A stretch of 59,679 nt of DNA. Origin: a virus (Duplodnaviria > Caudoviricetes). Positions 963 through 49,897 of this stretch are shown here, piece after piece. The stretch spans positions 1 to 59,679 of IMG/VR virus record IMGVR_UViG_3300032231_000653; one strand, given 5' to 3'. A model generated the notes under the pieces. The model ran no database searches. It was not told the DNA's origin and saw only the letters and a program-made list of their open reading frames with translations. How positions within the stretch are numbered: position 1 is the first letter of the stretch; each line of letters opens with the position of its first letter. Position numbers and translations under genes: made by a program.

Positions 963-963
963 A

Positions 964-10270: not shown

Positions 10271-10399
10271 ACAACGTATGTAAGTGTATAATGCAACCAG
10301 TATGCCAGAACGCAATGCTTTAAACAATAGGCTTTTAGCAACAACACATGAATTAAGTGTACCATAAGGTACACTTAATGAACATAAACGTACTTTGTA
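10271..10399. repeat. 129-bp inverted repeat, copy A (partner 49769-49897)
   Basis: Manual alignment with the reverse complement of 49769-49897 gives 6 mismatches and no gaps. Confidence 0.95.
10292..10307 (-). promoter_or_regulatory. Sigma54-type promoter
   Basis: TGGCATACTGGTTGCA (GG-N10-GC) on the minus strand. Confidence 0.8.
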
Positions 10400-10549
10400 T
10401 TTTTTATGGAATATAGTAAAAAAAGCATGCGGAACTGTAAGAGTACCTTATAGTACTGCCAAGCACGTTAACGTAACAAAGAACTGCTTATTTAGAAGAG
10501 TATTATCTTAAGTGTTTGTAACTACCACCATTTTATATTCAGTGAATGT

Positions 10550-10565
10550 AGGCATGCGTATTGCA
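10550..10565 (+). promoter_or_regulatory. Sigma54-type promoter
   Basis: AGGCATGCGTATTGCA (GG-N10-GC). Confidence 0.7.
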
Positions 10566-10619
10566 CTAAGCATAATTGTAATAATATGCGTAAAAGAACT
10601 CGACATGAGGGTGTATGAC

Positions 10620-10808
10620 ATGACTACAAAATTGCGTGAAGAAATAATGAATGATAAGACTTTATCTCCACAAGAGCGTGCGTATTATCTTGAAGAAGAT
10701 GGATGGGGAAACCCTATATGTGATGGAGACCCTGCGTGGTGTGGTCGTATAAACTATTGTAGACTTGTGGAAGATTGCATGGATGAAGCGTTACAAGATG
10801 AGTTTTAA
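10620..10808 (+). CDS. Hypothetical small protein
   Basis: Start re-assigned to the ATG after GAGG; Cys-containing C-terminus. Confidence 0.6.
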   Translation: MTTKLREEIMNDKTLSPQERAYYLEEDGWGNPICDGDPAWCGRINYCRLVEDCMDEALQDEF

Positions 10809-10829
10809 ACTTATAAGGAGCATAAAAGT

Positions 10830-11042
10830 ATGGAAAAATGGTATTTCACGTTCGGCTGTGGTCAAAAATTTGCATATAGTTATGTAGTTATTCATGCAGT
10901 GAACTTCGAGCACGCACGCGCATGCATGTTCAAAAACTACAATACACACTGGTGTGGTCAGTATTTGGAAGAACAATGGAATAGTCCTAGAAATTTGTGT
11001 AAAAATTACACACTTTTGAAGGAAATAAAAAGTTATGAGTAA
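10830..11042 (+). CDS. Hypothetical phage protein
   Basis: AGGAG RBS; WYFTFG.G....YV.I......AR..M.......W..QY pattern typical of small phage proteins. Confidence 0.7.
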   Translation: MEKWYFTFGCGQKFAYSYVVIHAVNFEHARACMFKNYNTHWCGQYLEEQWNSPRNLCKNYTLLKEIKSYE

Positions 11043-11101
11043 TGTTAAAGGCCACGTTATAAGCCATCTTTTACGTAAATAACATAGTAAAGGTACAGAT
11101 G

Positions 11102-11138
11102 CTAATATGTTACAATACGTAGTATTGTAACATATTAG
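11102..11138. repeat. Perfect 17-bp-arm palindrome with GTA loop
   Basis: CTAATATGTTACAATAC-GTA-GTATTGTAACATATTAG. Confidence 0.9.
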
Positions 11139-11153
11139 TTTAAGGAGCGCAAT

Positions 11154-11687
11154 ATGATAATAAAAAAAGAAGTTATAGAAGGCATTAAAGCAGTTTACGA
11201 GTTGTTTAGAAGCACAGGATATGCAGATTACTACATGGAGAAACCTATAAATGTGGCATACCGTGCAAAAAAATTGGGTTACTTAGATACACATAGATGG
11301 GTTTTACAGAATAAAAAACTTTATTTGCAAATTTTTGTGCACAAAACAAAAAAGATAAAAAAAGTGCAAGATAGCAAAAGTTTGGAAAAGTGTACACAAA
11401 AAGATGCAACGTACGAATGTGATGCGTTCCCTTTACTTAATGCTATATTTACTTTTAAAAACGAAATATTTACTTTTAGCATGCTAGAAGTAAGGTATGC
11501 CAAGGATACAGGAAAGCATCTTTTGTATATTTCAACTTTAGAAATGTTAAACGACTTTATAACGGGAGGTTTTTTGGAATCTTTTAAGGACATTTCAGGA
11601 ACTGTGTGCTACCGACGTCCTATAATAAAAGAGGTTTTAAAAACTTGGAAAAAACGTAAAAAAAGAAAGCGATATAAGAGTTACTAA
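11154..11687 (+). CDS. Hypothetical protein
   Basis: AAGGAG RBS; 177 aa. Confidence 0.65.
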   Translation: MIIKKEVIEGIKAVYELFRSTGYADYYMEKPINVAYRAKKLGYLDTHRWVLQNKKLYLQIFVHKTKKIKKVQDSKSLEKCTQKDATYECDAFPLLNAIFTFKNEIFTFSMLEVRYAKDTGKHLLYISTLEMLNDFITGGFLESFKDISGTVCYRRPIIKEVLKTWKKRKKRKRYKSY

Positions 11688-11694
11688 CATTAAG

Positions 11695-11729
11695 TTATAT
11701 GTTATGATACTACGTATCATAACATATAA
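11695..11729. repeat. Perfect 16-bp-arm palindrome related to 11102-11138
   Basis: TTATATGTTATGATAC-TAC-GTATCATAACATATAA. Confidence 0.9.
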
Positions 11730-11773
11730 GATGCACAAATGCAACTAATTGTTACAAATAACAGGAGGACATT

Positions 11774-12463
11774 ATGCATACTTTTTACATACTCATCATA
11801 TTAAGCTTATTAGTAGTTTCTATAAAATTATTAAATGATGTAAATAAAGACATGTTCACGAAATTAAAGTCTAAAGACTGGCTTCTGCGAGAACGTTGGA
11901 GCGGTGGTACTATTTTAACTAAAAAAATGCGTAAGGCACGTAAAAGTAAAAAACCTTTTGGAGTGCTTTTTATCGATGTTGATGACTTTAAAAAAGTCAA
12001 CGACATGTATGGGCATGTGTATGGTGATAAGGTATTACTTCAAGTTGCCCATGCGCTTCTGCACCATACCAGACAAACACCTATGGCATTGCTTAAGAGT
12101 GTGCATAGCGTGAAACGTAAAAGAGTTACATACTGCACATCAGTCATAGCAACATTTAAGTATGCATTTAGATGTAAACGTTGGTTGCAGAACATTTTAA
12201 ATCTGCGTTTGTGGCGTGGTGATCGTCTAGTTAGATATGGTGGGGACGAGTTTCTATGTTTGTTCGATAATGTGGATGCAAATGTATTAATACAAGTCGG
12301 CTGGCGCATTAGTAAACAGCTAAAAAACCTTGGAATTTCCGTGTCTATTGGGGGGACATTATTTAAAGTAACGGATAGTGTACATCAAGCGCGCTTGCTA
12401 AATGCTGCGGATAAGGCTATGTATGTGGCAAAAGAAAAAAGAAGTAAGGTGGTAATTTTGTAA
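11774..12463 (+). CDS. GGDEF-domain protein (putative diguanylate cyclase) with N-terminal membrane anchor
   Basis: FIDVDDFKKVND.YGH..GD.VL, RYGGDEF, VSIG and ADKAMY.AK motifs; AGGAGG RBS. Confidence 0.9.
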   Translation: MHTFYILIILSLLVVSIKLLNDVNKDMFTKLKSKDWLLRERWSGGTILTKKMRKARKSKKPFGVLFIDVDDFKKVNDMYGHVYGDKVLLQVAHALLHHTRQTPMALLKSVHSVKRKRVTYCTSVIATFKYAFRCKRWLQNILNLRLWRGDRLVRYGGDEFLCLFDNVDANVLIQVGWRISKQLKNLGISVSIGGTLFKVTDSVHQARLLNAADKAMYVAKEKRSKVVIL

Positions 12464-12585: not shown

Positions 12586-12689
12586 AATATTGTAACATGC
12601 TAAAATGGTGTTGCAAGTGTTATTGGAAAATTAAGTTAAAAAAAAATTATTTTTATAGCATTTTAAGCTTAATTTCTAGTTTGGAATAA

Positions 12690-12822
12690 ATATCCACAGC
12701 TTGTGGATAAGTGGGAAAAGTTGCGCGGTAGCGCAAGCTTTCCCTTAATTAATTTTAACAGTAACAACTAATAATTAATTATTATATTATTATATTATTA
12801 TTATTATATTAATATAATAATT
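12690..12822. other. Candidate replication origin (DnaA-box pair + AT-only tract)
   Basis: ATATCCACA (12690) and TGTGGATAA (12702) are inverted; an A/T-only tract of about 55 bp lies at 12769-12823; the site is upstream of the replication operon. Confidence 0.4.
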
Positions 12823-12838
12823 TGCAATAATTGTGCCA
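12823..12838 (-). promoter_or_regulatory. Sigma54-type promoter pointing into non-coding DNA
   Basis: TGGCACAATTATTGCA on the minus strand, near-consensus. Confidence 0.65.
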
Positions 12839-12934: not shown

Positions 12935-14482
12935 ATGATTATAAAAATTTTTAACACAATTTGTACTGTCACAGGAATTCTGGCAGAAGAAAGAGCAGCA
13001 CTGGACGTTGTAACTTCTGGTTTTGCTAAAGGTTACTTTTTTACACCTCTTTACAAAAAACACAAGTGGGATGGTAAAGTCCACTTATTCAAAAAGAACA
13101 CATTCCCTACAGGTTTACTAGATCGCGTGTTAACTCATTGTGCTGCACAAGGGTACATGTTTGAGTTGCAAGATATGCGTGTGATCCCCCCGACAAAAAA
13201 GCTAGTTATAAATTTATTTGATGTAGAATTACGTGATTACCAAAAAGCCTGCGTAGATGTTTGTACGGACTCGTTACCGAGAGGCATAATACATTTAGCT
13301 ACGAATGCGGGCAAAACGGAAATAGGGATTGCTATTGCGCAGCGACTGAATTTAAAAACTCTGTGGTTATCTGATAGCTTGTCCATAGTGGATCAAACTA
13401 TAAAACGTTTTGAAGCACGTTTGGGTGAGCCTATCGGCAGAATCGCATCAGGCGTGTGGTCACCCCAAAAAATTACAGTTGCATCCATAGACACTTTATG
13501 GTCGCGCTTGAACTTATACAAATCAGTTATTTATTATACTTGCATGTACTGTAAACGTAAGTGTGCTGTAAAATCTCAAAAAGTTGGTTACAAATACACT
13601 TGTAAGTACTGCGATAATACTTCTAATGTGCAGAAAGTCAGTAAAGTGCGTGAGCTAAAAAGGGATGCTTTCGCACGCGCAAAACAAAATAGGACGTTAG
13701 AATATTTTAAGGGCATTGATGTTGTAATATCTGATGAATGTAGTCACGTACCAGCACGTACGTGGTATTCTGTTCTGATGAACATACACGCTTATTATCG
13801 TTTTGGTTTATCTGCGACTCCTTTTGATAAGAAAACCGCTTCAGATTTACAGTTGATTGGCGCTTTGGGGCCTGTAATTTATGAAGTTGGGAATAAACAA
13901 CTGATCTCTAAGAAAATATCGGCTCTGCCTACTTTCGACATTGTTGAGATAACACACCCTAAAAATCCTGATTTTATGGATGTTAGCTGGCAGCTTGCAG
14001 AAAGTGACGGGATTATAAATAATCATTACAGAAATAAAGTTATAGTTAATAAGGTCCGAAATGCATGCCAAAGGGGTAAGGGAGTGTTAGTGCTTTTTTG
14101 TAAAATACGCCACGGTATGTTATTGAAGGATGCATTACAAAAAGTAGACGGTTGTCGTGTGGCCATGCTTACAGGCGCATGTAATCTTGCAGAGAGGGAT
14201 GAGATAGTCCGTGCATTTCAACAGGGTGGAATAAACGTAATCTTGGCATCTACTATTTTTGATGAAGGGATCAGTATAAATGAAATAGATGTTTTGTTAC
14301 TCGCAGGTGGTGGTAAGAGTAACCAGAAGGCCATCCAACGCGTAGGGCGTGGGTTACGTATGAATGATACTGGTACTGTGCAAATTGTGGATTTTATGGA
14401 TGTATCAAACAAATATTTATTACGCCATTCGGAGCAACGGATAACGGCGTATAAATCAGCAGGGCTTATGCCTAAAAATTAA
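12935..14482 (+). CDS. SF2 (DExH, UvsW/XPB-like) helicase with inserted zinc finger
   Basis: LRDYQ, ATNAGKT, DECSH, GLSATP and QRVGRGLR motifs; CxxC...CxxC insert. Confidence 0.9.
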   Translation: MIIKIFNTICTVTGILAEERAALDVVTSGFAKGYFFTPLYKKHKWDGKVHLFKKNTFPTGLLDRVLTHCAAQGYMFELQDMRVIPPTKKLVINLFDVELRDYQKACVDVCTDSLPRGIIHLATNAGKTEIGIAIAQRLNLKTLWLSDSLSIVDQTIKRFEARLGEPIGRIASGVWSPQKITVASIDTLWSRLNLYKSVIYYTCMYCKRKCAVKSQKVGYKYTCKYCDNTSNVQKVSKVRELKRDAFARAKQNRTLEYFKGIDVVISDECSHVPARTWYSVLMNIHAYYRFGLSATPFDKKTASDLQLIGALGPVIYEVGNKQLISKKISALPTFDIVEITHPKNPDFMDVSWQLAESDGIINNHYRNKVIVNKVRNACQRGKGVLVLFCKIRHGMLLKDALQKVDGCRVAMLTGACNLAERDEIVRAFQQGGINVILASTIFDEGISINEIDVLLLAGGGKSNQKAIQRVGRGLRMNDTGTVQIVDFMDVSNKYLLRHSEQRITAYKSAGLMPKN

Positions 14483-14505
14483 CTTTACAGGAGTAACTCG
14501 GAGCT

Positions 14506-14973
14506 ATGGAACACGGAGCATATTCGGAGATAATTACACCTACCGTTATTTTAAATTTATTTTCTGCTATAAAGGCGGATTATACAGGTATTCCTTACAG
14601 TTCAATTAAAAATTCTGCAAAAAATATAAGTCTCGCCATAAAAATAATGCAAGTGGCCAAAAAGGTGAATGTACCTGTTAGTGTGTATATGGAAGCGCAG
14701 TTTGCGATTGACAATGCACGTATTGATCCCGCTTATGTACAATTGAATCACTTATTAAGCGTTAACGCGCAAGACCGCGCCACACGCCACTATCACCAAA
14801 TCTACACGGAGGATCATGCACAGCGTAACGCAGTGACTTTTACAGCCGATGATCTAAATGCGTATTGGGAGAATACCATTAGCAGCATTGGTAGCAAAAC
14901 AGGCGCATGTGTGCAGCACATACGCGCACACCTGCTTGCATCAGGGCTGTTGCGTACTACAGGTGGTGTATGA
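14506..14973 (+). CDS. Hypothetical protein (replication operon)
   Basis: GGAG RBS; ATGA overlap with the DnaB gene. Confidence 0.7.
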   Translation: MEHGAYSEIITPTVILNLFSAIKADYTGIPYSSIKNSAKNISLAIKIMQVAKKVNVPVSVYMEAQFAIDNARIDPAYVQLNHLLSVNAQDRATRHYHQIYTEDHAQRNAVTFTADDLNAYWENTISSIGSKTGACVQHIRAHLLASGLLRTTGGV

Positions 14974-16238
14974 AAAGCACTACGGAGCAACTACCCGCAG
15001 AATTTCAAATGCAGATAATTATTTGCATATTAGCATCAAAAGAATTTTTATCGGAAATAATAGATTTATTAAAAGTGGAATATTTCGATGTTTCTTACCT
15101 CCAACAAATCGCAAGTGTTATGTTAGATTTATTTACGCAAGGCCACCCTATAGATAAATTTACGGTGAAGACTTTGGCATTGGAGAAAGCGCCCGTTAAA
15201 GACCGTGACATTATAATTACTATTTTAGATCAAGCTGTTGTTTCTGATAAAAACGTGGGTTTTGTAAAAGATAAGTTTGTGGAGTTTGCTACGCATCAGG
15301 AGCTAAAGTTGGCAATAGCAAAAAGCACAGTACTATTAAATCAATGGAAGCACACAGAGATTAGAGATGTAATGGGTGCATTGTCAGCTAAATTGTCACC
15401 AAATGTGTTTCAGGACTATTTTGCAACATCTAAGAAGCGTGCTTTGGATAGGACTACAGCAGGTGAGAGCGTGTACACGAAAACACTAATTCCAGCTTTA
15501 GATAATGTAATTCAAGGGCTTTTTAGAGAGCAACTAGGTGTATGGTTAGGCCGTCCAGGTGGTGGGAAGAGTGTGGCATTAAGGCATTGCGCCAAGGCCG
15601 CAGCGCTGCTTGGACAGACGGTTCTTTACTACACGCTGGAACTGTCCAGTGCTATATCTATGGATTGCTTTGACGCATCTATCACAGGGATTACCATGCG
15701 TGATTTACGCGATAGTACGAGTGATGTAATTAAATTAATGGAGGATTATAGTGAAACATACACAGGAGATATTTTTGTTGCTCAGTACCCTGCGCGTGAG
15801 CTAAATGCTACGATAATAAAAGGGCACTGCCAGAGATTTGCGGCATTGGGGAGGGCGCCACACGTAATTGTGGTTGATTATGGCGATTTAATGTCCTCAG
15901 CCAAGGTTTATACTAGCAGATATGATGAATTGGAGGCTGTTTATGAAGAGTTGCGTGGTGTAGCACAAACTTACAAAATAGCTGTATTTACTGCTAGTCA
16001 GGCCAATCGTGCATCGCTTGCGAAGGAGGTCATTACTATGGCGGATATCGCGGATAGTTGGGGGAAATGTAAAGTTGCGGATTGGATTGTTGCGCTTTGT
16101 CAAACCCCTGCGGAGCGCGCGGATAATAGAGGTAGATTTTTTACAGCAAAAAATAGAAATGGCCCTGAGGGGGTTAGTGTGCCATTTTTTTGTGATTTTT
16201 CCAGATCATTGTTTTTGACCTTTCCAGAAGGTAGATAA
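14970..16238 (+). CDS. dnaB: Replicative DnaB-like helicase
   Basis: GRPGGGKS Walker A, TLEL, VVDYGDL, TASQANR and KNRNG motifs; start at the ATGA overlap. Confidence 0.9.
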   Translation: MKSTTEQLPAEFQMQIIICILASKEFLSEIIDLLKVEYFDVSYLQQIASVMLDLFTQGHPIDKFTVKTLALEKAPVKDRDIIITILDQAVVSDKNVGFVKDKFVEFATHQELKLAIAKSTVLLNQWKHTEIRDVMGALSAKLSPNVFQDYFATSKKRALDRTTAGESVYTKTLIPALDNVIQGLFREQLGVWLGRPGGGKSVALRHCAKAAALLGQTVLYYTLELSSAISMDCFDASITGITMRDLRDSTSDVIKLMEDYSETYTGDIFVAQYPARELNATIIKGHCQRFAALGRAPHVIVVDYGDLMSSAKVYTSRYDELEAVYEELRGVAQTYKIAVFTASQANRASLAKEVITMADIADSWGKCKVADWIVALCQTPAERADNRGRFFTAKNRNGPEGVSVPFFCDFSRSLFLTFPEGR

Positions 16239-16239
16239 A

Positions 16240-17166
16240 ATGTATGTGCAACATAAAAATACGTATAAACTCGATCTTACAAAATTTGATGTGATTGCGT
16301 ATTTACACAATAAGGGCATGCAAGCGAATCCGAGAACACATGCTGCGGATATGGATGTGGCTTTTAACTGTTTTTTTTGTGGCGATAAGGCTCCAAATAA
16401 ATACCACTTATCAGTCAATAAATATTCCACCATGTTTAATTGCTGGCTATGCAGCCGTAGTGGTAATGCATGGACATTTTTAAGGCATTTTGGGGATAGA
16501 CTTTACAATGTACGCGAATACATAAGAGACGCACAGTTTTTTGAAGAGCATGCTCATGCAAAACCCAAGAAATCTTGGTATGGAGAACTGCCGGAATTTT
16601 TTACGCCTATAGGTGAGTTAAAAGTTCTGCCTACTTACTTGGTAAAAAAGGGTTTTGATAGGCGTAAATTAGAGAAATACCGTGTAGGTTACTGTGATCT
16701 TGGTGTTATGGCTAAACGTGTTATATTTCCGATTTATTGTGGTGGTAGATTAATTAGTTTTATCGGGAAGAGCATTTGCAAGGGCGTCAAACCATATAAT
16801 CCAGAGGGTGTAAGGTTTAGCGAGCTTTTGTATAATTATGATGTTGCGAAGCTGCATGACACTTGTGTTATTGTTGAGGGCGTCACTGACGCCATCGCTA
16901 TAGGATCAAACGCTGTGGCACTTTTTGGGAAAAGTATGTCCACAGCACAGTTAAATTTAATATTAAAGGCACGTTTTAGTAAGGTTGTTGTGTGCCTGGA
17001 TGATGATGCGCATAGTGCTACTTTGCGTATAGCTGCAAAGTTAGCGCTCTTTGTTAACACATGTGTTGTGCTTTTGAAAAATGGTGATCCCTGTGATCAC
17101 AAAAATATAAATGACATTTTATACACGCAGGCCAAAGCTTACAGTGGGGATTTATGCAGTACATAA
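16240..17166 (+). CDS. DNA primase (zinc finger + TOPRIM)
   Basis: CxxC...CxxC; IVEGVTDA, LDDDA and GDP TOPRIM motifs. Confidence 0.9.
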   Translation: MYVQHKNTYKLDLTKFDVIAYLHNKGMQANPRTHAADMDVAFNCFFCGDKAPNKYHLSVNKYSTMFNCWLCSRSGNAWTFLRHFGDRLYNVREYIRDAQFFEEHAHAKPKKSWYGELPEFFTPIGELKVLPTYLVKKGFDRRKLEKYRVGYCDLGVMAKRVIFPIYCGGRLISFIGKSICKGVKPYNPEGVRFSELLYNYDVAKLHDTCVIVEGVTDAIAIGSNAVALFGKSMSTAQLNLILKARFSKVVVCLDDDAHSATLRIAAKLALFVNTCVVLLKNGDPCDHKNINDILYTQAKAYSGDLCST

Positions 17167-17256
17167 TTGGAACACGCAGTACTATTATGTTCTTTGAGGT
17201 ACTGATCAACATACTATTATGCGCGTATTTTGTACGTTTTAAAGGGATGAAGGCAT

Positions 17257-17272
17257 TGGCACATATATTGCT
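17257..17272 (+). promoter_or_regulatory. Sigma54-type promoter
   Basis: TGGCACATATATTGCT. Confidence 0.8.
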
Positions 17273-17308
17273 TTACATACGCTTACAAACAAATAACAGG
17301 AGGACGTT

Positions 17309-18118
17309 ATGAGCGAAGAATATAATTTTGTAGTAAATGAGCAACCATTAAGAATAAGTAATACATCTGGCCAGGACGTAGTTGATCCTACTAGAAAGGT
17401 GTTGGTGAGAGATGATGACATGGGTGTGTTGGGTGTTGTTGGGCGAAACTATCAGGTTATTTCCCACACTGATGTTATTGATGGTGTTGATGCAGTGCTT
17501 GATGAAAAGGGTTGGAATTTTGAGAAGATTGTGTACACGTTTGACGGGGGATCACTTATGCGTGCTTCTTATAAGTTCCCCGATATGAAATTTAATGTAA
17601 CACCTGATACCCAATTAGGGGATTATGTAGGTTTTGGCATAGACATCGTGAACGGGATTGGCGGGCGTGCTGCTGTACGGTTGGAGATACAGCTATTACG
17701 GCTAGTTTGTTTGAATGGGATGAAAGTATCTGATAAATTTTACAACATATATGGCAGGCATACGGCCTCTTTTGAACTAATTGGTTTCAGAGACAACGTT
17801 GTTTTAGCACATGAGCATGCGGCACAGCGTGTTATTCCCTTTTACAACGATCTGAGCAAAACCGAAATAACAGAGGAACGATCTGATATCTTGATAAATG
17901 GCATTGTGCAAACTGGGCATAACTATGTGCCCAAATCGTACGAGGATGCAGTCAGGAGCCAATTAAAAGATAGTGACACATTAACTCTTTGGGCGTTATA
18001 TAATGCATTTACATATGCAATTACTCGGCAAAGTTTTGAAGAGGGGAAAGTTCAGCGCTCCCGAAAGTTGCTGCAGATAGTCGATAGGTATTTCAGGGCA
18101 CGGCACGCAGCTTTATAG
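17309..18118 (+). CDS. DUF932-family protein
   Basis: LGVVG.NY.V..H, RLVC.NG and T.W.LYNA.T motifs. Confidence 0.8.
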   Translation: MSEEYNFVVNEQPLRISNTSGQDVVDPTRKVLVRDDDMGVLGVVGRNYQVISHTDVIDGVDAVLDEKGWNFEKIVYTFDGGSLMRASYKFPDMKFNVTPDTQLGDYVGFGIDIVNGIGGRAAVRLEIQLLRLVCLNGMKVSDKFYNIYGRHTASFELIGFRDNVVLAHEHAAQRVIPFYNDLSKTEITEERSDILINGIVQTGHNYVPKSYEDAVRSQLKDSDTLTLWALYNAFTYAITRQSFEEGKVQRSRKLLQIVDRYFRARHAAL

Positions 18119-18127
18119 CTCTGGTAA

Positions 18128-18160
18128 TATGGGGGACTTACGTCCCCCATACGTTTTTTT
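18128..18160 (+). terminator. Intrinsic terminator
   Basis: TATGGGGGAC-TTAC-GTCCCCCATA followed by a T tract. Confidence 0.85.
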
Positions 18161-18191
18161 AATCACTTTTAGAGGATGACATCCACCACGT

Positions 18192-18443
18192 ATGTTGTGC
18201 AGATGCGATTTACTTTACATAAAAGAAGAAGGGAAAGTTATGGATGATGTAACAGCGAGTTGGCGTGAAATAGTCGTCGATCCAGGAAATAGGTACAGGA
18301 GCACAACGATAGAAGCAACGTATAAAACCAGCGTAATAAATGGTGAATGCGCTGAGATGGCTTTTGCGCGTGCATGGCTTATAGTTCGGAAACAGCTTGA
18401 TATGCAGCGTACTGTGGCACATAAGATTTTTACAGAGACATAA
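18192..18443 (+). CDS. Hypothetical protein
   Basis: ORF; the true start may be the ATG at 18240. Confidence 0.55.
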   Translation: MLCRCDLLYIKEEGKVMDDVTASWREIVVDPGNRYRSTTIEATYKTSVINGECAEMAFARAWLIVRKQLDMQRTVAHKIFTET

Positions 18444-18444
18444 G

Positions 18445-19182
18445 ATGCACACGTATGAATGTATAACTTGGTATGACATTCCTGCTTACGTGGGGTTGTA
18501 TGAGATTAGCGAGTACGGAGCCATATGGAGTACCCGTAGGAATAAGCAATTAAGAACGTACATGAACAGACCTGATGGGTATAAGACTGTTTGCTTATCC
18601 GTCGGTGGTAAATGTAAGTGGTTTTGTATACATAGATTAGTTTTGTGCTCTTCTGAAGGCATTAAGTATAACGCAAAGAGATTACATGGTAAACAGTGTA
18701 ACCATAAGGATGGTGATAAACTGAACACTCATGTTAGTAATTTGGAGTGGGTTACTGCAAGGGAGAATGCGTTACACTCAAGGAGAGTCTTGGGTAAGTG
18801 TTGTGGTGAAAAGTCAAACTCAAATAAACTTAAAAATGCTGACGTACTTGAAATATTGGCTAAGTTGCGCGCAGGAATAGTGTCCGCAGGGACTATCGCG
18901 AAAGAGTACAATATTTCAGATGCTGCGGTGTCTTCGATAAAGCATGGGCGCACGTGGCAGAGTGTCACAGGGATATTACATAATAAAAAACGGGTACCCC
19001 GACATAAAAAAATTACAAATCTTTCTGGCAAAAGAACAACCAAGTTAACGCTGGAGCAGGTTGTAGCAATTAAATTAGAATTAGCGCGGGGATTGAGTTG
19101 TACAGTCCTGGGTCGGAAATATAATGTTAGTAGGCAGACTATCGGAGCCATTAAACGGGGTGCAACTTGGAGGCATGTGTAA
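18445..19182 (+). CDS. HNH homing endonuclease (NUMOD4-HNH, C-terminal HTH repeats)
   Basis: W.DIP.Y.GLYEIS..G, IHRLV and NHKDGDKLN..VSNLEWVT..EN..H motifs. Confidence 0.9.
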   Translation: MHTYECITWYDIPAYVGLYEISEYGAIWSTRRNKQLRTYMNRPDGYKTVCLSVGGKCKWFCIHRLVLCSSEGIKYNAKRLHGKQCNHKDGDKLNTHVSNLEWVTARENALHSRRVLGKCCGEKSNSNKLKNADVLEILAKLRAGIVSAGTIAKEYNISDAAVSSIKHGRTWQSVTGILHNKKRVPRHKKITNLSGKRTTKLTLEQVVAIKLELARGLSCTVLGRKYNVSRQTIGAIKRGATWRHV

Positions 19183-21684
19183 TTGGGTAAATTAGTTTCA
19201 TGTAAATGTGGTACGCAGTTCGATCCTACATGGGCAGCATATGATGAGTGCCCCACGTGTCGTGCGCACCATGTCGCCCGTTTTTTATCTGAGCGTCAAC
19301 GCTGTGGTAAATGTGATCTATCACGTAATTGTCTCACGAATTGCATGCGCGGCGTTGGTGCCACGCATGCAGATGTCATGATTATAGGGGAAGCGCCAGG
19401 ATACCGTGAAGACAGAAAGGGTGCGCCGTTTCTTGGTGATGCAGGTGCTTGTCTGAATGATTTAATTAAATCTGCTGGTTGGAAGAGGAGTGAAATTTTT
19501 ATCACAAACGTGTGTAAGTGCCGCCCACCTAATAACGCTACGCCTAAAGTATCACATATTAAAGCGTGCATGCCATATTTAGAAAATGAAATAAACAGCG
19601 TTAATCCCAAGCTTATCGTGGCGTTGGGTAATGTTGCCATGCGCGCTGTACTAAACACGACAGGTATAATGCGTGCACATGGAGATGTTCAATGGTCAGA
19701 TACGTACAATACTTGGGTGTTACCTTGTTTGCATCCTGCGTATCTTTTAAGAACACCTACATACACGGATATAACTAAGCAAGAGTTAAAATTAGGTGCA
19801 TACGTAGCAGTACATAATAGACTACCTCCCAAAGACGAGGTTAAATATGAGTACACAGATGGTTTGTCAGATGCTATAAAAATGCTTGAGCTTGTGGGCA
19901 AGAGTGAAAAAATATCTTTTGATATTGAGGCTTATGGATTAAATCCGTGGAAATGTAAGGGTATTTGCAGTTTTGCATTCACTATCAGCGAGCACACAGG
20001 ATTTGGGATAGATATAAGAAAATGGGATACGAGCACTTTGCTAAAGTTTAAACCATTTTTGGCGGATATTTTAAGTAAGAAGCACTTAAAAATAATACAC
20101 AATTTTGAGTATGAATATAAAATGTTGCGCAGGTTCTTTGGGATAATTATTGCGCCTAAAGTTTTTGATACGGTTGTAGCACATCATTTGTGTTATGAAG
20201 AGTATCCACATGATTTGGAAACATTGGCTACACTGCACTGTAATATGCCAAATCATAAACAGGAATTTGTGACATTAACAAATAATTACGCGGATATGGA
20301 CATTCCGACTACTGAGGAGTTACTAGGTTATAACTGCGCCGACACTGACGCAACGTACAGGCTATACAATGTGTTAGTTCCTTGGATGCGTAAAGAAGGT
20401 GTAGTCAAACTATTTGATGAGATTACTATGCCTTTGTGCCACGTTTTGGCAGAAGTAACGTACACGGGCGTGCACATAGACACTGTAAAATTGCACCAGG
20501 TTGCTGCAAAGTACGCAGACATTATCACCAATGGAAAACGTGCAATTGCGTTACTTACGGATGATTTAAAGTTTAATCCACTATCACCTAAGCAAGTGAG
20601 TGGATATTTTTACGAAAATAAAGGCTACAACTCTCTAAAGTGTTCAAAAACAACCCAGGAACCTTCGGCGGATAAAGAGTCGTTAGAACACATTGTAAGC
20701 ACTTATAATGATCCTGTGGCACGGTTAATTTTGGAGGTTAGAAAGTACGTTAAGCTAAAAAGCACTTATTTAGACGGAGGAAAAACAAGCGGCGGGCTTT
20801 TGCAGTATGTAGACGGAGAATCCAGAATACATACACAATATCTGGTGCACGGAACGACAACGGGGAGGCCATCGAGTAAGGCGCCAAATTTACAGAATCA
20901 AAGCAGATCAGACGATATTCGTGGCTTGTTTACAGCAACAGCAGGGACTTACTTGCTGGATGCTGATTACTCTCAATTAGAGTTACGTATAGCAGCGTAT
21001 TACTCAAAAGACCCACATCTACTAAGCGCGTACATACTTGGCTTAGATTTGCATTCTATAGTTGCTACTGATTGTTTAGGCGCAGACCCGCAGAATGTTG
21101 ATAAAGATTTAAGAACAGCAGCAAAAGCGATAAATTTTGGAATTATTTATGGCATGGGGCCGAAAGGATTAGCCGCGGACATTACAACTAAACGTGGGCG
21201 CATATGCACTGAAGATGAAGCGGCTCAGTATATACACGCGTATTTTGAGCGTTATGAAAAATTGCGTGATTTTGTGGAAGCAATAAAAAATACCGTGTTG
21301 GCAGGCCAGGCGCTTGTAACAATATACGGGAATAAGCGCAGATTTACTAATATCAAGCACATGTTAAAGGAGCCTCATAAGTATAGCATGGCATTAAGTG
21401 AAGCCGTACGCACGGGGCAGAACTTTCCTATACAGGGGACAGCAGGGCATACATTATCTGACGCGACCGTGCGTGTAGACGCCGCTATAAAGGCGAGTAA
21501 AATGCCAATGTCCATCGTATTAACAGTACATGACGAATTACTGTTTGAAGTGCGTGAGGACGTACCACACGCGGAAGCTACTCAATTGGTTAGAGAAAAC
21601 ATGGAGAATCCAGAAATTTTTGGAGGGCTGCTACCATTCCCTGTGGACATCGAAATAACACGCGCATGGAAACAGAAAGATTAG
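19183..21684 (+). CDS. Family A DNA polymerase with N-terminal zinc ribbon and family-4 uracil-DNA glycosylase-like domain
   Basis: IGEAPG..ED..G.PF.G.AG, KCRPP.N and HPAY (UDG); FDIE (exonuclease); DYSQLELR, R..AKAINFG..YG and VHDEL (PolA). Confidence 0.92.
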   Translation: MGKLVSCKCGTQFDPTWAAYDECPTCRAHHVARFLSERQRCGKCDLSRNCLTNCMRGVGATHADVMIIGEAPGYREDRKGAPFLGDAGACLNDLIKSAGWKRSEIFITNVCKCRPPNNATPKVSHIKACMPYLENEINSVNPKLIVALGNVAMRAVLNTTGIMRAHGDVQWSDTYNTWVLPCLHPAYLLRTPTYTDITKQELKLGAYVAVHNRLPPKDEVKYEYTDGLSDAIKMLELVGKSEKISFDIEAYGLNPWKCKGICSFAFTISEHTGFGIDIRKWDTSTLLKFKPFLADILSKKHLKIIHNFEYEYKMLRRFFGIIIAPKVFDTVVAHHLCYEEYPHDLETLATLHCNMPNHKQEFVTLTNNYADMDIPTTEELLGYNCADTDATYRLYNVLVPWMRKEGVVKLFDEITMPLCHVLAEVTYTGVHIDTVKLHQVAAKYADIITNGKRAIALLTDDLKFNPLSPKQVSGYFYENKGYNSLKCSKTTQEPSADKESLEHIVSTYNDPVARLILEVRKYVKLKSTYLDGGKTSGGLLQYVDGESRIHTQYLVHGTTTGRPSSKAPNLQNQSRSDDIRGLFTATAGTYLLDADYSQLELRIAAYYSKDPHLLSAYILGLDLHSIVATDCLGADPQNVDKDLRTAAKAINFGIIYGMGPKGLAADITTKRGRICTEDEAAQYIHAYFERYEKLRDFVEAIKNTVLAGQALVTIYGNKRRFTNIKHMLKEPHKYSMALSEAVRTGQNFPIQGTAGHTLSDATVRVDAAIKASKMPMSIVLTVHDELLFEVREDVPHAEATQLVRENMENPEIFGGLLPFPVDIEITRAWKQKD

Positions 21685-21691
21685 TTTTTAG

Positions 21692-21719
21692 TTGCAATGG
21701 GTTAAATAATTATTAACAT
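21692..21719 (+). promoter_or_regulatory. Sigma70-like promoter
   Basis: TTGCAA-N16-TAACAT. Confidence 0.5.
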
Positions 21720-21749
21720 GTATTATAGCTATTTATAGGAGGTAACATA

Positions 21750-22208
21750 GTGTCTGACATTGGAGATATAAAAGATTTAGAAAAAGAACTGGCTTTTTCT
21801 AAAGAAACGATATCGGATGATTTAATTAAACAGCCATCGACATGGTATTACTATGCGTCATTGTATGATCGATTAATGCATGAGTTGAACACGGCCCAAT
21901 TGCGCTTGGAGGTATACGCCGCCGAATTGAGCGCAAAAATTGAAACTACATATAAGGAGGAGACTAAACCGCAGCCAGATGCGAAAGGCCGTGCTAAATT
22001 TTCACAGGCGGGTTGTGATTCCAGAATCAAGTTGGGGATTCCACGGGATCCAACTTGGTTGCAGTTATCGCAAGCTATTGCTATTTTAAAATATCGTGCA
22101 AAATTGGCATATTCTGCTAAGGGTGCCCTAACACAAAAGGGGGATATGTTAAGAGCGTATGTATCTATACTTCGGCAAGAGTATGATAATTCAGCAATTC
22201 CGAAATAG
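21750..22208 (+). CDS. Helical protein, possibly UvsY-like recombination mediator
   Basis: Helical pattern and position before SSB/RecA; the function is inferred. Confidence 0.5.
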   Translation: MSDIGDIKDLEKELAFSKETISDDLIKQPSTWYYYASLYDRLMHELNTAQLRLEVYAAELSAKIETTYKEETKPQPDAKGRAKFSQAGCDSRIKLGIPRDPTWLQLSQAIAILKYRAKLAYSAKGALTQKGDMLRAYVSILRQEYDNSAIPK

Positions 22209-22222
22209 GAGGAGGTTTTTTT

Positions 22223-24288: not shown

Positions 24289-24310
24289 TGGAGTGCGGGG
24301 CATTAAAATT

Positions 24311-26354: not shown

Positions 26355-26356
26355 TT

Positions 26357-35481: not shown

Positions 35482-35517
35482 AATGTGCCAATAGAAAATT
35501 ATAGGAGTAATTAGGCT

Positions 35518-37409: not shown

Positions 37410-37619
37410 GGAAAAATACCATGAGGAATTTAAAGTAAGTGGAGGATATAGGTGTACATATGTTAACGCTAGAACGTTTTTATTTGTTAGGACTATTGTT
37501 AGGCTTAATTTTAGCTGCTATTACAAAGCTATATGATATCATTATGTGTAAATTTGCGCCAAATTACAAGTCTATGCGGTAGGCTAGACACGTATACATT
37601 TCTAATGTTATAATACCTC

Positions 37620-37755
37620 TGTGACAAAATTTTATTTGTCACAGTTGATTTTAAAGGAGTTACAAGGATATTTTTCAGGAATGGCACTTTTGTCACACCC
37701 AAATCTGTGACAAAGCACATATTTTGTGACAGTCTGTCACAGTTGATTTTAAAGG
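37620..37755. repeat. Cluster of six TGTCACA/TGTGACA boxes and a 21-bp direct repeat
   Basis: Boxes at 37620, 37637, 37691, 37706, 37725 and 37735; TGTCACAGTTGATTTTAAAGG occurs twice. Confidence 0.85.
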
Positions 37756-37771
37756 GTTTAGGCACTAACGC

Positions 37772-38517: not shown

Positions 38518-39999
38518 ATGAATGTTTTGGAATTAGAAAAGAAGTTCGGCGATCCCCGATACGTTGACGAACATAAGCTTGCTACGTGGCATAATAATAT
38601 TTATATGCGAGATTTAGCCGCGAGGTTATTAAGCAAGCAGTCTTCTTTGCATTTCATAGAATATGTTTACCAGGAATATAAAGCAAGTTGGCATCATAAG
38701 TTAATTTGTAGCGTGTTTGATGATTGGGTCGCAGGGAAAATAAAGCGTCTTTTAGTTTTCGCCCCTCCCAGACATGGCAAAAGCCTCATAGCCTCTGAGC
38801 ATATTCCCGCGTTTATTTTTGGTAAAAATCCTAAAGCACGCGTAATAGCTGCTTCGCACTCTCAGGAATATTCGGAAAGAGAATCCAGAAAAGTACTGGA
38901 GTGCTTGAATAGTATACGTTATAAGCGTATCTTCCCTAACACAATTATTGGTGGCAAAGGCAAGCGTGTTGCTGTAAAAGGGTGGGAGACATCCTTGGGT
39001 GGCGAATACAAATGTGCAGGTGTCGGTACAGGTATAGCGGGGTTCGGGTTTAACTATGGCATAATAGATGACCCTATAAAAACACGTAGAGATGCAGAAA
39101 GTAAAACTATACGTGATGGTATCATAGATTGGTATAGGTCAACGTTCCTGCACAGGCAACATAAAGGCGCTTCCATAGCTATAATTCAAACTAGGTGGCA
39201 TCCAGAAGACTTAAGCGGTTATTTGCTTAGCATGGAAAAGGAAGATACTAATGCTGATAAATGGACTGTTATTAGTTTACCTGCCATTTTAGACTGCAAG
39301 CCTATGCAAGGCGATCCTCGGCAGCAGGGTGAAGCTTTGTGGCCAACCGAGTTTTCTTTAAAAGATTTGGAAAACAGACGTGCTAATAGTTTAGAATACG
39401 AATTTAGCGCGCTATACCAGCAACGCCCTATACCATCAGGTAGAAGTAAGATAAATCGTGAATGGTTTAATATTATTGATGAAGCACCTGCTGGCTTAAA
39501 ATGGAGTAGATTTTGGGATATTGCTGTTTCTGCCAAGAAGTCTGCTGATCATACAGCAAGTATTGCATGTGCGCGTGATCTTAAGGGCAACTATTACTTT
39601 AAGGATATGATTCGTGGTCAGTGGGAATGGCCAGATGCGCACAGGATTATTATAAATACTTCTAAAATTGAAAAATGCCCCATAGGGTTTGAATTAGGGG
39701 GGCAACAGAAGGGGTTCCTTGCAGAACTTCTAAGGGACTTAGAATTATCAGACGTTTTTGTTAAAGGGTATTCTCCGGATGCAGATAAACTTACGCGTGC
39801 ATTACCTTGGATAGCTAGGGCACAGGCAGGTAAAGTTTACCTAATCCGTGGTTTGTGGATAAACCCCTACTTGGCAGAATGTGAAGTGTTTACTGGACAT
39901 AACGACAAAAGTGACGATCAGATTGATGCTAGTTCCGGTGTGTACTTTATGGTTTCTAAAGGCGGTGTGGGTTATAGAAGTTCGGGTACAGTATATTAA
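38518..39999 (+). CDS. terL: Terminase large subunit
   Basis: APPRHGKS, IIDDP.K, QTRWH..DL.G, LYQQ.P, WD.A and DDQ.DA motifs. Confidence 0.95.
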   Translation: MNVLELEKKFGDPRYVDEHKLATWHNNIYMRDLAARLLSKQSSLHFIEYVYQEYKASWHHKLICSVFDDWVAGKIKRLLVFAPPRHGKSLIASEHIPAFIFGKNPKARVIAASHSQEYSERESRKVLECLNSIRYKRIFPNTIIGGKGKRVAVKGWETSLGGEYKCAGVGTGIAGFGFNYGIIDDPIKTRRDAESKTIRDGIIDWYRSTFLHRQHKGASIAIIQTRWHPEDLSGYLLSMEKEDTNADKWTVISLPAILDCKPMQGDPRQQGEALWPTEFSLKDLENRRANSLEYEFSALYQQRPIPSGRSKINREWFNIIDEAPAGLKWSRFWDIAVSAKKSADHTASIACARDLKGNYYFKDMIRGQWEWPDAHRIIINTSKIEKCPIGFELGGQQKGFLAELLRDLELSDVFVKGYSPDADKLTRALPWIARAQAGKVYLIRGLWINPYLAECEVFTGHNDKSDDQIDASSGVYFMVSKGGVGYRSSGTVY

Positions 40000-40477: not shown

Positions 40478-41086
40478 TTGAATGATGTAAAAAATGTATT
40501 GTCTGTAAGAAGGTACAAGGCGGGTTATGAAATACGCATGGAAGATGTGCTTACGCATTTCGAAGATAAGCCACGTGATCATAGTATGGTAATTAAACGT
40601 GCATACACATCAGATGGGCAATTTTTAGGTGATCCAAAAAGGGCTTACAGGTTATGTAACAAATATGGCATTCGTAAGTTCGAGAAGGTTGATCCTACGC
40701 ATTGCATATGTTCTATAGGGTTTAATCCAGAGCAGCAGAAGTGGTATGGGTGGAGCCACAGAGCAATTTACGGGTTTGGCATAGGGAGTGAAGTTAAACG
40801 AGGCAGTTGTGGGTATAGAACACCTAGTTTATGTAAGTTAGCGCAAAGTTTTAAAGAGGGGAAAAGCGGCCCTCGTATTAGAATAGATAAAGACAAGAAA
40901 TTGGTAGCTGTCAGTTTTCCTTATTATAAAGAAATAGGGGTGCGTGAAAACGGCTCGCTAATCTTTTCAGAAGAAGTTTTTTGGGATGACGAGGTTTATT
41001 TTTACCCTGGGCGTGGTGAGTGGAAGGCTGAAACATTAGATGATGCTAAAGAGATGGCTAAAGATCTCGCAAGAGGTGTGAGTTAA
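40478..41086 (+). CDS. Hypothetical phage protein
   Basis: SIGF....QKWYGWSHRA..GFGIG conserved-looking phage motif. Confidence 0.75.
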   Translation: MNDVKNVLSVRRYKAGYEIRMEDVLTHFEDKPRDHSMVIKRAYTSDGQFLGDPKRAYRLCNKYGIRKFEKVDPTHCICSIGFNPEQQKWYGWSHRAIYGFGIGSEVKRGSCGYRTPSLCKLAQSFKEGKSGPRIRIDKDKKLVAVSFPYYKEIGVRENGSLIFSEEVFWDDEVYFYPGRGEWKAETLDDAKEMAKDLARGVS

Positions 41087-47614: not shown

Positions 47615-47630
47615 ACAGAAAGGACATATT

Positions 47631-48137
47631 ATGGCTTTTATGGTCGAATCTAAAAAATTGATAGTGTGTAAACCAGAAATTTTAAATTATTTAGTTGGCA
47701 ATGGTGTTGACTTGGGTGCCGGTCACATAAAAGTACGTCCAGAAGCTTTAGGTATCGATTTCGGGAGTAACGGGCATTCTTGGGTAGGCGATGTTACCCA
47801 GTTGTTTTGGTTTAAAGATAGTGTTTTAGATTATGTGTTTTCAAGCCATTGTCTGGAACACGTAATTGATGATGTTGCTACTTTGAGAGAGTGGACACGG
47901 GTACTGAAAGCAAATGGTTATTTAGTGCTATATGTGCCTGATGACAACCAGTTTGATAATACCGAGATGCTTGCGAATGGTGAGCACAAGTATGTATATA
48001 CTGTTGACAGCTTGACACAAACTCTACAGAAAATTGACAATCTTAGAATCCTTTCGGTAAATGCACACACGGGGCCTGTGCCTAATAATCCTGGGCATTC
48101 TGTGTATTCTTTAATAGCTATTTGTCAAAAAGTGTAA
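47631..48137 (+). CDS. Class I SAM methyltransferase (Methyltransf_11-like)
   Basis: G.DLG.G and D.VFSSH.LEH....L.EW.RVLK..G.L.L.VP motifs. Confidence 0.85.
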   Translation: MAFMVESKKLIVCKPEILNYLVGNGVDLGAGHIKVRPEALGIDFGSNGHSWVGDVTQLFWFKDSVLDYVFSSHCLEHVIDDVATLREWTRVLKANGYLVLYVPDDNQFDNTEMLANGEHKYVYTVDSLTQTLQKIDNLRILSVNAHTGPVPNNPGHSVYSLIAICQKV

Positions 48138-48310
48138 TATGTGGAAACATTTTGAATATTTTATTATAAGTATATTTGCGATTATTTGTTCCATATTGCT
48201 ATTTCCATGATAAATTGGAATAACAAGCAAGGAATGTTTTAATAACCTAAGCGCATGGAAGGAGGTATCTTAAGTATTTTATTTTATTAACGTATTAAAA
48301 TGGTGGAAAA

Positions 48311-48637
48311 ATGAAAAAAAATTTTATGATCGGTGCCATTGTCATTTTTTGTTGTGTTTTTTCTGCCAGCCCTGTATCACGTAGTTTTTCTAATGGGATA
48401 CAGAGCGCAGGTTACACGCAGGCAAATGAAGCGCCATGTTTAACACCTGATGTAACACAGCCGCATGTACTGGCCGTGTTACAACCTTTCAAAAGTATAA
48501 GTATTATAGATCAAAATAACGAAAAGTTTTTGGTGCATGACGTGCAGAGCATAAAGCCCGTCGTAATGCCGCTAAGCCAGCGAAAAACTGTGTACGCAAA
48601 TATGTTTAAACGTGCTTATTGGCGTAGCTCCGGTTGA
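48311..48637 (+). CDS. Hypothetical exported protein
   Basis: MKK followed by a hydrophobic signal-like N-terminus. Confidence 0.5.
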   Translation: MKKNFMIGAIVIFCCVFSASPVSRSFSNGIQSAGYTQANEAPCLTPDVTQPHVLAVLQPFKSISIIDQNNEKFLVHDVQSIKPVVMPLSQRKTVYANMFKRAYWRSSG

Positions 48638-48674
48638 CTCCTATAATCCTAAAAAAATTTCGTTATCAAGTTAA

Positions 48675-48702
48675 ATAGCAGGGTACATGTGTACCCTGCT
48701 AT
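48675..48702. terminator. Hairpin between convergent genes
   Basis: ATAGCAGGGTACA-TG-TGTACCCTGCTAT. Confidence 0.7.
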
Positions 48703-48723
48703 ACTTTCTCAGGATATGCGCAT

Positions 48724-49155
48724 TTAACCTTCTTCTTCCACTTTCCATTTCAGAGGATATCCAGCATCTTTCCAGGCTTTTATGACGGCCTCTTTATCAA
48801 CCTCATAAACAAACCAGGCTTTGGTTATCTCCCCCGTTTCGGGGACAACTGTCGTCTTGATTTGCTTACTAAAAAACTTGTTGAGCCCCTTGTGGGGGCA
48901 GTTTACTGTCCTCTCGCAGCGCTGGACGAAGTGCCCAGATTTCCTTGCTGTCGCTTCGTCTATTTCGCAATAGACGGCTACCTTGGTCACCGATTCTACT
49001 TTTCGATTTAAGAGATCTGCACTTAGTTCGGGCAGATCCAGTTCTTCTCTTGCCCTATCCAGGTCTTCCAGTCCTAGAAGGGTTTTTCCCATGCTTACAG
49101 CCAGTATCAGCCCTCTTGTTTCGTCATGCACCTTGATCTCGATTTCAAATTTCAT
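48724..49155 (-). CDS. Hypothetical protein
   Basis: AAGGA RBS; 143 aa. Confidence 0.7.
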   Translation of the reverse strand: MKFEIEIKVHDETRGLILAVSMGKTLLGLEDLDRAREELDLPELSADLLNRKVESVTKVAVYCEIDEATARKSGHFVQRCERTVNCPHKGLNKFFSKQIKTTVVPETGEITKAWFVYEVDKEAVIKAWKDAGYPLKWKVEEEG

Positions 49156-49238
49156 AATTCTTTTTCCTTATAATTAATTTTTATGATTTTTTGGCTCCCG
49201 TAAGGGAGACAGGTGGTCCGCCAGGAGGCGGTTTCGGG

Positions 49239-49538
49239 TTAGTTTCTCTTGCATGTTAGTTGATACCATGATCCAGTTGAATTGTAAATTGTTTCGGTTA
49301 TCGTTTCTTTTGCTACAATTTCGTTAGTCTCCTTTTCCACGACAGCTATGGTTTTTCCACCGTAGCTTATTAAAAAATCATCATACGTAAAAGAATCCAT
49401 CTGAAGATCATCAATCACTTCAGCTAAATAATCTTCAAGGCTCCCGGTAACGAATTCCCAATCTTTATCGCCTATGCTATCCACAAAAATTCCGTTTACG
49501 TGGATTTCTCCCCTGTAAAATTTCCCTGTTCTTTCCAT
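49239..49538 (-). CDS. Hypothetical acidic protein
   Basis: AAGGAG RBS; downstream of a sigma54-type promoter. Confidence 0.7.
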   Translation of the reverse strand: MERTGKFYRGEIHVNGIFVDSIGDKDWEFVTGSLEDYLAEVIDDLQMDSFTYDDFLISYGGKTIAVVEKETNEIVAKETITETIYNSTGSWYQLTCKRN

Positions 49539-49602
49539 GATATTTTCTCCTTAAATGGTGTTTCTTTCTCTTTTTCTCTTTTTCTCTATTGCCTATGTAT
49601 AA

Positions 49603-49618
49603 TGCAATGGCCATGCCA
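49603..49618 (-). promoter_or_regulatory. Sigma54-type promoter
   Basis: TGGCATGGCCATTGCA on the minus strand. Confidence 0.8.
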
Positions 49619-49768
49619 ATACTATACATAAAATATGTGTGTAGGTAAGTGTATATAAAACAAACACTTACATAAAACGTGCCTGTATGCATAAAACAGC
49701 CTCTTGTTAAAAGCACGCATGTGGTACGGTGGCAGTACATTAATGTGCTCAGTATATACAGCACATAG

Positions 49769-49897
49769 TACAAAGTACGTTTATGTTCATTAAGTGTACT
49801 ATAAGGTACACTTAATTCATGTATTGTTACTAAAAGCCTATTGTTTAAAGCATTACGTTCTGGCATACTGGTTGCATTATACACTTACATACGTTGT
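49769..49897. repeat. 129-bp inverted repeat, copy B (partner 10271-10399)
   Basis: See copy A. Confidence 0.95.
49861..49876 (+). promoter_or_regulatory. Sigma54-type promoter
   Basis: TGGCATACTGGTTGCA. Confidence 0.8.

Follow-up and report, generated by a model that had tools for sequence, protein, structure and literature searches.

The virus record IMGVR_UViG_3300032231_000653 (Duplodnaviria; Caudoviricetes), found in one sediment-metagenome run, was analyzed over its entire length of 59,679 nt (the window), and its 78 scanned open reading frames (ORFs) were assigned from PHROGs and Pfam. The window contains an inverted repeat whose two copies lie about 39 kb apart, each within a divergent control region (cassette) of ~390 nt that has two outward-facing GG-N10-GC sites (Table 1). 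With moderate confidence, we interpret the repeat from its sequence as two copies of a promoter-plus-enhancer module for the host sigma-54 polymerase, placed before two unrelated genes. The unit that was copied would comprise a -24/-12 promoter with its start region and, farther upstream, a 26-bp palindrome; the two copies would stand ahead of genes that happen to be oppositely directed, and the inverted geometry would be a by-product of module copying. The four cassette promoters would belong to a family with at least eight members in this fragment.

An initial annotation had described the repeat as inverted copies with 123 of 129 positions identical, and this was confirmed for the cores listed in Table 1. 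Exact identity is uninterrupted over at most 42 nt, the next longest runs being 31 and 25 nt, and the six mismatches fall at positions 10313, 10339, 10345, 10364, 10367, and 10368. A repeat search of the window extended the arms to 145 nt (91% complementary, 39337 nt apart) and detected no other long inverted repeat. Each copy runs from ~21 nt downstream of the -12 GC to ~21 nt past the palindrome, with no coding sequence inside it, and the small ORFs downstream are unrelated, as the annotation had stated (BLASTP E values of 3.1 and 1.0). An assembly artefact or a chance resemblance is a very improbable source of the repeat: Logan contigs of the sole run do break at the repeat, but with six mismatches and no more than 42 identical bases in a row any assembler using k >43 resolves the copies, contigs on both sides are equal in depth (9.0-10.8), and the 123/129 match between the arms has an E value of 3.5e-56.

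The four outward-facing sites of the cassettes are members of a larger set of promoter-like sites. The pattern GGCAY-N5-KTGCW occurs at eight sites in the window against 1.10 expected, none of 100 shuffled sequences reaching eight, and the narrower GGCAYNNNNNTTGCW (GGCAY-N5-TTGCW) at seven against 0.76 expected, with no shuffle of 100 reaching seven. GG and GC are 10 nt apart in all eight sites, which depart from the 16-mer TGGCAY-N5-TTGCW at one position or none. Every one of the eight is intergenic, as are all six exact 16-mers, in a window whose intergenic share is 11.6% by the gene list used, and seven of the eight have a start codon on the same strand 37-65 nt downstream, together with a Shine-Dalgarno sequence. 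By position, family members stand at the head of the small-gene blocks, of the DNA-polymerase block, and of the block with the RpoD-like sigma factor: the units headed are 9840-10229 (-), 10620 onward, 17309 onward (DUF932, HNH, polymerase), 32060 onward (including the sigma factor), 49538-48724 (-), 49928 onward, and 53889 onward. No family site was found in the tail block or in the terminase/sugar-modification block. The initial annotation had called the cassette sites sigma-54 promoters; they do behave like -24/-12 promoters, being enriched, intergenic, oriented, and syntenic in a relative, and that part of the claim stands, whereas the assignment of sigma-54 as their reader goes beyond these observations.

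Table 1. Positions of the repeat arms, promoter-like sites, palindromes, and principal genes in the window
Feature	Position	Strand	Description
Left arm of inverted repeat	10271-10415 (core 10271-10399)		Holds promoter-like site P1, start region, and palindrome U1
Right arm of inverted repeat	49753-49897 (core 49769-49897)		Holds promoter-like site P5 and palindrome U4
P1	10292-10307	-	TGGCATACTGGTTGCA (15-mer GGCATACTGGTTGCA at 10292-10306); faces gene 9840-10229 (-)
P2	10550-10565	+	AGGCATGCGTATTGCA (15-mer GGCATGCGTATTGCA at 10551-10565); faces gene 10620-10808 (+)
P4	49603-49618	-	TGGCATGGCCATTGCA (15-mer GGCATGGCCATTGCA at 49603-49617); faces genes 49538-48724 (-)
P5	49861-49876	+	Same sequence as P1 (GGCATACTGGTTGCA at 49862-49876); faces gene 49928-50245 (+)
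Further family member	12823-12838	-	TGGCACAATTATTGCA; faces AT-rich region without ORFs; syntenic with G001 36-50 (-)
Further family member	17257-17272	+	TGGCACATATATTGCT; 37 nt ahead of DUF932 gene; syntenic with G001 4543 (+)
Further family member	32000-32015	+	TGGCATAAAACGTGCA; 45 nt ahead of ORF 32060-32443; palindrome at 31901-31914; syntenic with G001 18712 (+)
Further family member	53830-53845	+	TGGCATAGCGATTGCA; ahead of ORF 53889-54095; palindrome at 53743-53756
U1	10353-10378		Perfect 11+4+11 palindrome TTAAGTGTACC-ATAA-GGTACACTTAA, 26 bp; contains GTAC-N6-GTAC
U2	10443-10456		Palindrome GTACCTTATAGTAC in non-repeated half; center 101.5 nt from P2 GG
U4	49790-49815		Copy of U1; one arm mismatch; 4-nt spacer reversed relative to flanks
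GTAC-N7-GTAC element	49724-49738		Right cassette, non-repeated half; 114 nt from P4 GG
TAAGTGT-N11-ACACTTA inverted repeat	49646-49670		Center 41 nt from P4 GG; TAAGTGTTTGT within, on - strand
TAAGTGTTTGT box	10509-10519	+	32 nt upstream of P2 GG
ORF downstream of P1	9840-10229	-	129 amino acids (aa), no known family
ORF downstream of P2	10620-10808	+	62 aa, no known family; opens rightward block
ORF downstream of P4	49239-49538	-	99 aa, no known family
ORF downstream of P5	49928-50245	+	105 aa, no known family
Tail genes	513-9749		Siphovirus type (tape measure, J-like protein, NlpC/P60)
Replication/recombination block	12935-31446		UvsW-like helicase, DnaB, primase, family-A polymerase, gp32-like protein, RecA, SbcCD, resolvase, several methyltransferases
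RecA	23080-24288		Full; PF00154, E 1e-113
RpoD-like sigma factor	33220-34065		Truncated: regions 2-4 only
TerL	38518-39999
Sugar-modification block	ends 48637
Right-end genes	after 48637 to right end		Small genes, HU-type protein, methyltransferases
HU-type DNA-bending protein	55565-55876		PF00216, E 1e-22

The family recurs in a single relative, G001 (IMG/VR, 23.2 kb), whose helicase and polymerase are 50% and 49% identical to those of the window. From the helicase to the methyltransferases the two records agree in gene order, and protein identity in the replication module ranges from 28 to 80%; the intergenic DNA of the two records cannot be aligned. GG-N10-GC sites are found at three syntenic places in the relative: upstream of the helicase (- strand), ~45 nt before the DUF932 gene, and ~45 nt before an ORF resembling an integrase N-terminal domain, where the site has a divergent partner, the pair being 283 nt apart. 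The relative also has upstream palindromes of its own, TGTAAT-N3/4-ATTACA, 62 and 82.5 nt from the GG, and the 11-mer TAAGTGTTTGT occurs in it 32 nt upstream of a -24 GG, as at P2. Because this record begins 386 nt before the helicase, the equivalent of the left cassette lies outside it. Further relatives were few: no DNA match to the window was found in the phage collection and no exact match to the 22-nt core of P1 in IMG/VR, and IMG/VR scans with the helicase and polymerase returned nothing beyond G001 and two distant contigs. A metagenome scan with the helicase gave 80 loci of 23-41% identity (best segment).

Two of the single sites are accompanied by features of their own. The site at 12823 (-) is followed by no ORF of at least 50 aa; a putative 143-nt transcript starting from it (region 12670-12838, - strand) folds far better than shuffled sequences (z -5.9), ends in a terminator-like 3′ hairpin, and matches no Rfam family at the gathering score. 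Possible identities are a small RNA and an origin transcript. ORF 32060-32443 has a stand-alone paralog at 54493-54897 (each ~130 aa; 28% identical, E 2e-19), and both resemble the integrase N-terminal domain, one of them matching PHROG 1 (integrase) in no more than its N-terminal part. ORF 32060 and its homolog in the relative (18670-19122) each lie directly behind a sigma-54-type site, and ORFs of this kind are candidate DNA-binding regulators.

Candidate activator sites were sought in the same control regions. The initial annotation had supposed a shared central enhancer in each cassette, and the sequence part of that idea holds, in that candidate palindromes are located between the divergent promoters. 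GTAC-N6-GTAC occurs six times in the window against 0.55 expected, and none of 100 shuffles reaches six. Five of the six lie upstream of -24 elements, their centers 59.5 (P1 and P5), 81.5, 93.5, and 101.5 nt from the first G, and the sixth is inside the helicase gene. U1, the best of these palindromes, sits in the repeated module, its center 59.5 nt from the P1 GG and 185.5 nt from the P2 GG. A second element, the half-site TAAGTGT, is present 22 times in the window, 10 of them in the two cassettes, with one at the predicted start point of P1 and of P5. Enrichment and position of the GTAC palindromes are observed; their binding by an enhancer protein is putative.

The palindrome in the repeat differs between the copies in a particular way. 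The palindrome center (10364-10368 against 49800-49804) accounts for three of the six repeat mismatches. The 4-nt U1/U4 spacer reads ATAA on the + strand in both and is hence flipped relative to its inverted flanks, and the palindrome copies agree more closely when aligned directly, without inversion (96% over 28 nt). The pattern resembles a flip of the spacer through template switching inside the palindrome. U1 also fits TGTA-N8-TACA, the pattern of the cyanobacterial regulator NtcA; that reading was rejected on the grounds that the cellular-type genes resemble many non-cyanobacterial phyla and that it leaves both the GG-N10-GC family and the strong Shine-Dalgarno sites unexplained.

Transcription by sigma-54 RNA polymerase cannot begin without an ATP-driven activator. 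On the module interpretation, the host sigma-54 enzyme would bind the GG-N10-GC sites as a closed complex, which would be opened by an ATP-driven enhancer-binding activator supplied by the host or by the missing part of the phage genome. The activator's binding sites would be the GTAC-N6-GTAC or TAAGTGT palindromes, set on the correct helical face, and the HU-like protein of the phage may aid DNA bending. P1 and P5 are identical, and their two transcription units would therefore be co-regulated.

The choice of sigma-54 as the reader depends on the architecture of the sites. They match the sigma-54 consensus TTGGCATNNNNNTTGCT reconstructed for Clostridiales (PMC6615313). They fit no two-hexamer arrangement with 16-18-nt spacing, and sigma-70-type sites around the cassettes are not enriched (18 against 15.4 and 14 against 20.0). 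A sigma-70 reading, with TGGCA or TTGCAT as the -35 and opposite-strand TATAAT as the -10, was rejected: no partner hexamer was seen by eye at 16-18 nt, and the consensus scans showed no enrichment.

Several results weigh against the sigma-54 module. When one mismatch is allowed, GGCAT-N5-TTGCA occurs eight times against 7.23 expected and 44 of 100 shuffles reach eight; this loose pattern is not above chance, and the signal therefore rests on the near-exact sites. The motif is not enriched in the distant helicase relatives, where 76 of 81 loci have no match and the other five have one match each, all at the same coding position. Four of the eight sites extend into TTGCATTATA, the complement of which is TATAAT, and an inward sigma-70-type -10 box at this place is conceivable, although no -35 partner was seen by eye and its orientation would not suit the genes. 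The 78 ORFs of the window yielded neither a sigma-54 domain nor an activator ATPase of the PF00158 type, so the proposed activator is hypothetical.

The last two points would also fit another reader of the same module, namely a phage-specific sigma factor or polymerase encoded in the missing genome half, or the RpoD-like sigma factor of the window (Table 1) with a co-factor, the palindromes then being operators of a phage regulator. There is room for such genes, for the record is judged partial: no portal or capsid gene was recognized in the window by the PHROGs and Pfam scans, and CheckV rated the 23.2-kb relative 19% complete, an estimate that puts the genome size of the lineage at roughly 120 kb and the record at probably about half of a larger genome. 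The TTGCATTATA extension goes beyond the sigma-54 consensus, and the sequence of the palindrome differs between the two phages with the promoter core kept, as expected for a phage-encoded binder. What makes this alternative unlikely in our judgment is the invariant GG and GC exactly 10 nt apart, a sigma-54 signature and a misfit to the 16-18-nt spacing of the sigma-70 family. Moreover, the phage sigma factor has ordinary regions 2, 3, and 4 and, among the matches listed, is closest (34-39%) to primary sigma factors, and the variable N5 speaks against a contiguous promoter of the T7 type. For the palindrome binder itself, the difference between the two phages speaks for a phage-specified protein. 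A broader proposal would have the early/middle program run mainly through the host sigma-54 polymerase, including the replication genes and the phage's own RpoD-like sigma factor, with phased two-way cassettes and an activator that is either a signal-controlled host protein, gating infection by the physiological state of the host, or a phage protein unrelated to known AAA+ activators; this we advance tentatively, as possible but rather doubtful.

Information on the host is sparse. Among 120 matches listed for the phage sigma factor, eight of the nine relatives named to taxon are Firmicutes, a weak hint that the host may belong to that phylum, a sigma-54-bearing group. Scanning genome contigs with a tail protein gave one weak match (28% over 86 residues) in a Chitinophagales metagenome-assembled genome, which is uninformative. 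The best TerL match is a Methanomicrobiales virus (36%), but the idea of an archaeal host was dropped, the bacterial RecA, DnaB, DnaG-type primase, NlpC/P60 protein, and sigma-70-family factor speaking for a bacterial one.

The identical promoter spacing reported for the cassettes was also found here, with 244 bases between the GG pairs in both (10307-10550 and 49618-49861), which corresponds to a GG-to-GG distance of 245. So was the patchy similarity, with indels, of the remaining cassette halves: the inner halves, both 151 nt, are not colinear, being identical at 44 of 151 positions (29%) at offset 0, and have similar patches at the shifted offsets -23, -11, +4, and +23 (GTACTGCCA at -23, TAAGTGTTTGT at -11). 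They have 17 7-mers in common against 2.4 expected and a maximum of 10 in 500 shuffles. The conclusion that the spacing is under selection did not hold to the same degree. The cases number only two, one half of each cassette was copied recently, and the sole divergent pair in the relative has a spacing of 283 nt rather than 244, so we regard selection on the 244-nt spacing as possible but unproven.

The reason proposed for such selection is that a single central enhancer acts on both divergent promoters by way of a fixed looping geometry. It is suggestive that the inner halves are exactly 151 nt each though not colinear, the patch offsets -23, -11, and +4 returning to a net 0, and U1 and U2 have equal helical phase (0.67 at 10.5 bp per turn) relative to P1 and P2. 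The nearest palindrome-to-GG distances also fall within 0.24 turn (P ~0.017 for five sites, 0.054 for four), by a test chosen post hoc. On the other hand, the shared patches may be independent copies of binding motifs rather than aligned homologs, the 283 nt of the relative equal 27.05 turns against 23.33 for the cassettes, the palindrome of the relative is out of phase with its second promoter, and the single promoters of the family have palindromes at four differing distances. Taking these together with the small number of cases, we lean against a fixed geometry.

The initial annotation had further suggested that the repeats are a recombination substrate, through which the ~39-kb segment could invert to give two isomers or early genes could be shuffled. 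The arrangement is inverted, with the exact runs given above, and the phage encodes RecA, SbcCD, and a Holliday-junction resolvase; in addition, P1 equals P5, so exchange inside them leaves the pairing of promoter with flanking gene unchanged. At 4.7% divergence the copies are evidently not undergoing homogenization, however, and this divergence, together with identical stretches of no more than 42 bases, speaks against frequent exchange. Neither PHROGs nor Pfam scans revealed the catalytic domain of a serine or tyrosine recombinase, the two stand-alone integrase-N-terminal-like ORFs being the nearest thing, and in the recorded orientation nearly all genes are co-directional with uniformly positive GC skew. 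Logan contigs of the sole run contain no alternative junction, but k=31 contigs stop at shared 30-mers and are hence uninformative. An apparent isomer signal, in which contigs end at 10300, resume at 10370, and have loose ends matching the other copy, was discarded as collapse of the k=31 graph. Inversion of the segment looks infrequent, and as the explanation of the repeat it is improbable. The G segment of phage Mu with Gin and the Hin system of Salmonella are invertible segments of a few kilobases, in which short repeats serve as recombinase sites beside an invertase gene. Inverted repeats flank a DNA segment here too; unlike in those systems, the repeats are promoter modules, the 39-kb segment carries genes for replication and packaging, and no invertase was detected.

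Divergent pairs of sigma-54 promoters that share one enhancer region are familiar in bacteria, for example zraP / zraSR of Escherichia coli. The cassettes resemble this arrangement in having two outward -24/-12 promoters with candidate activator sites between them, but cases of that type encode the activator in one of the operons, and here both sides carry small proteins of no known family. Under the sigma-54 interpretation, the early, replication, and sigma-factor blocks would wait on an activator, coupling infection to a host signal or implying an undescribed phage activator, and the duplicated module would amount to a natural experiment, the same promoter and enhancer standing before two different genes.

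Enhancer-dependent sigma-54 (RpoN/SigL) promoters with upstream activator sequences have been reconstructed across the Clostridiales, most sites being 100-250 bp away (PMC6615313). The GG-N10-GC core and the upstream palindromes, of which several promoters have more than one, agree with its description. The palindromes of the window are closer, at 60-115 nt from the GG, no activator gene lies beside the promoters, and the putative promoters are in a phage and head phage gene blocks. Among phages, YuA, a siphovirus of ~60 kb, has a host sigma-54-type promoter beside other promoter classes (PMC10914365). YuA has one such promoter in the account given there, and the window has at least eight sites with enhancer-like palindromes, two in duplicated two-way cassettes; YuA was not among the best 20 matches in TerL or DNA polymerase searches of the phage collection. 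A protein of a T4-like phage is described in a preprint as structurally resembling enhancer-binding proteins, so phages can carry activator-like proteins (bioRxiv 10.64898/2026.10.06.757011). Our literature search returned YuA as the sole phage precedent and no phage with an array of sigma-54 promoters, and two-way promoter-plus-enhancer modules of the sigma-54 type appear hardly described in phages.

Outside the control regions, the window has the gene layout summarized in Table 1. Its nearest phages among the matches listed are no more than 36% identical in TerL and 31% in the polymerase, and no transfer RNA genes were found. A set of auxiliary genes at 40478-41086, 11774-12463, 34708-36207, and 36296-36847 includes a Tad6-type Thoeris inhibitor (PF25188, E 7e-45), a GGDEF-domain protein, two FGE-sulfatase-type proteins, and a pentapeptide-repeat protein. 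A 362-nt intergenic stretch (37410-37771) ahead of a probable small terminase gene has about six TGTGACA/TGTCACA motifs, counted by eye, and two copies of GTCACAGTTGATTTTAAAGG; its function may lie in packaging or in late control. At 48672-48695 the palindrome CAGGGTAC-ATGT-GTACCCTG separates the convergent genes 48311-48637 (+) and 48724-49155 (-) and probably acts as a terminator for both directions. The 11-nt unit TTGTAAGGTTT is repeated head to tail ten times at 54341-54449, flanked by a 66-aa ORF and ORF 54493-54897; the copies could be iterons or a protein-binding array. Finally, a 34-nt inverted repeat (55176-55279; 94% complementary, arms 36 nt apart) lies just ahead of ORF 55297-55539 (DUF2188).

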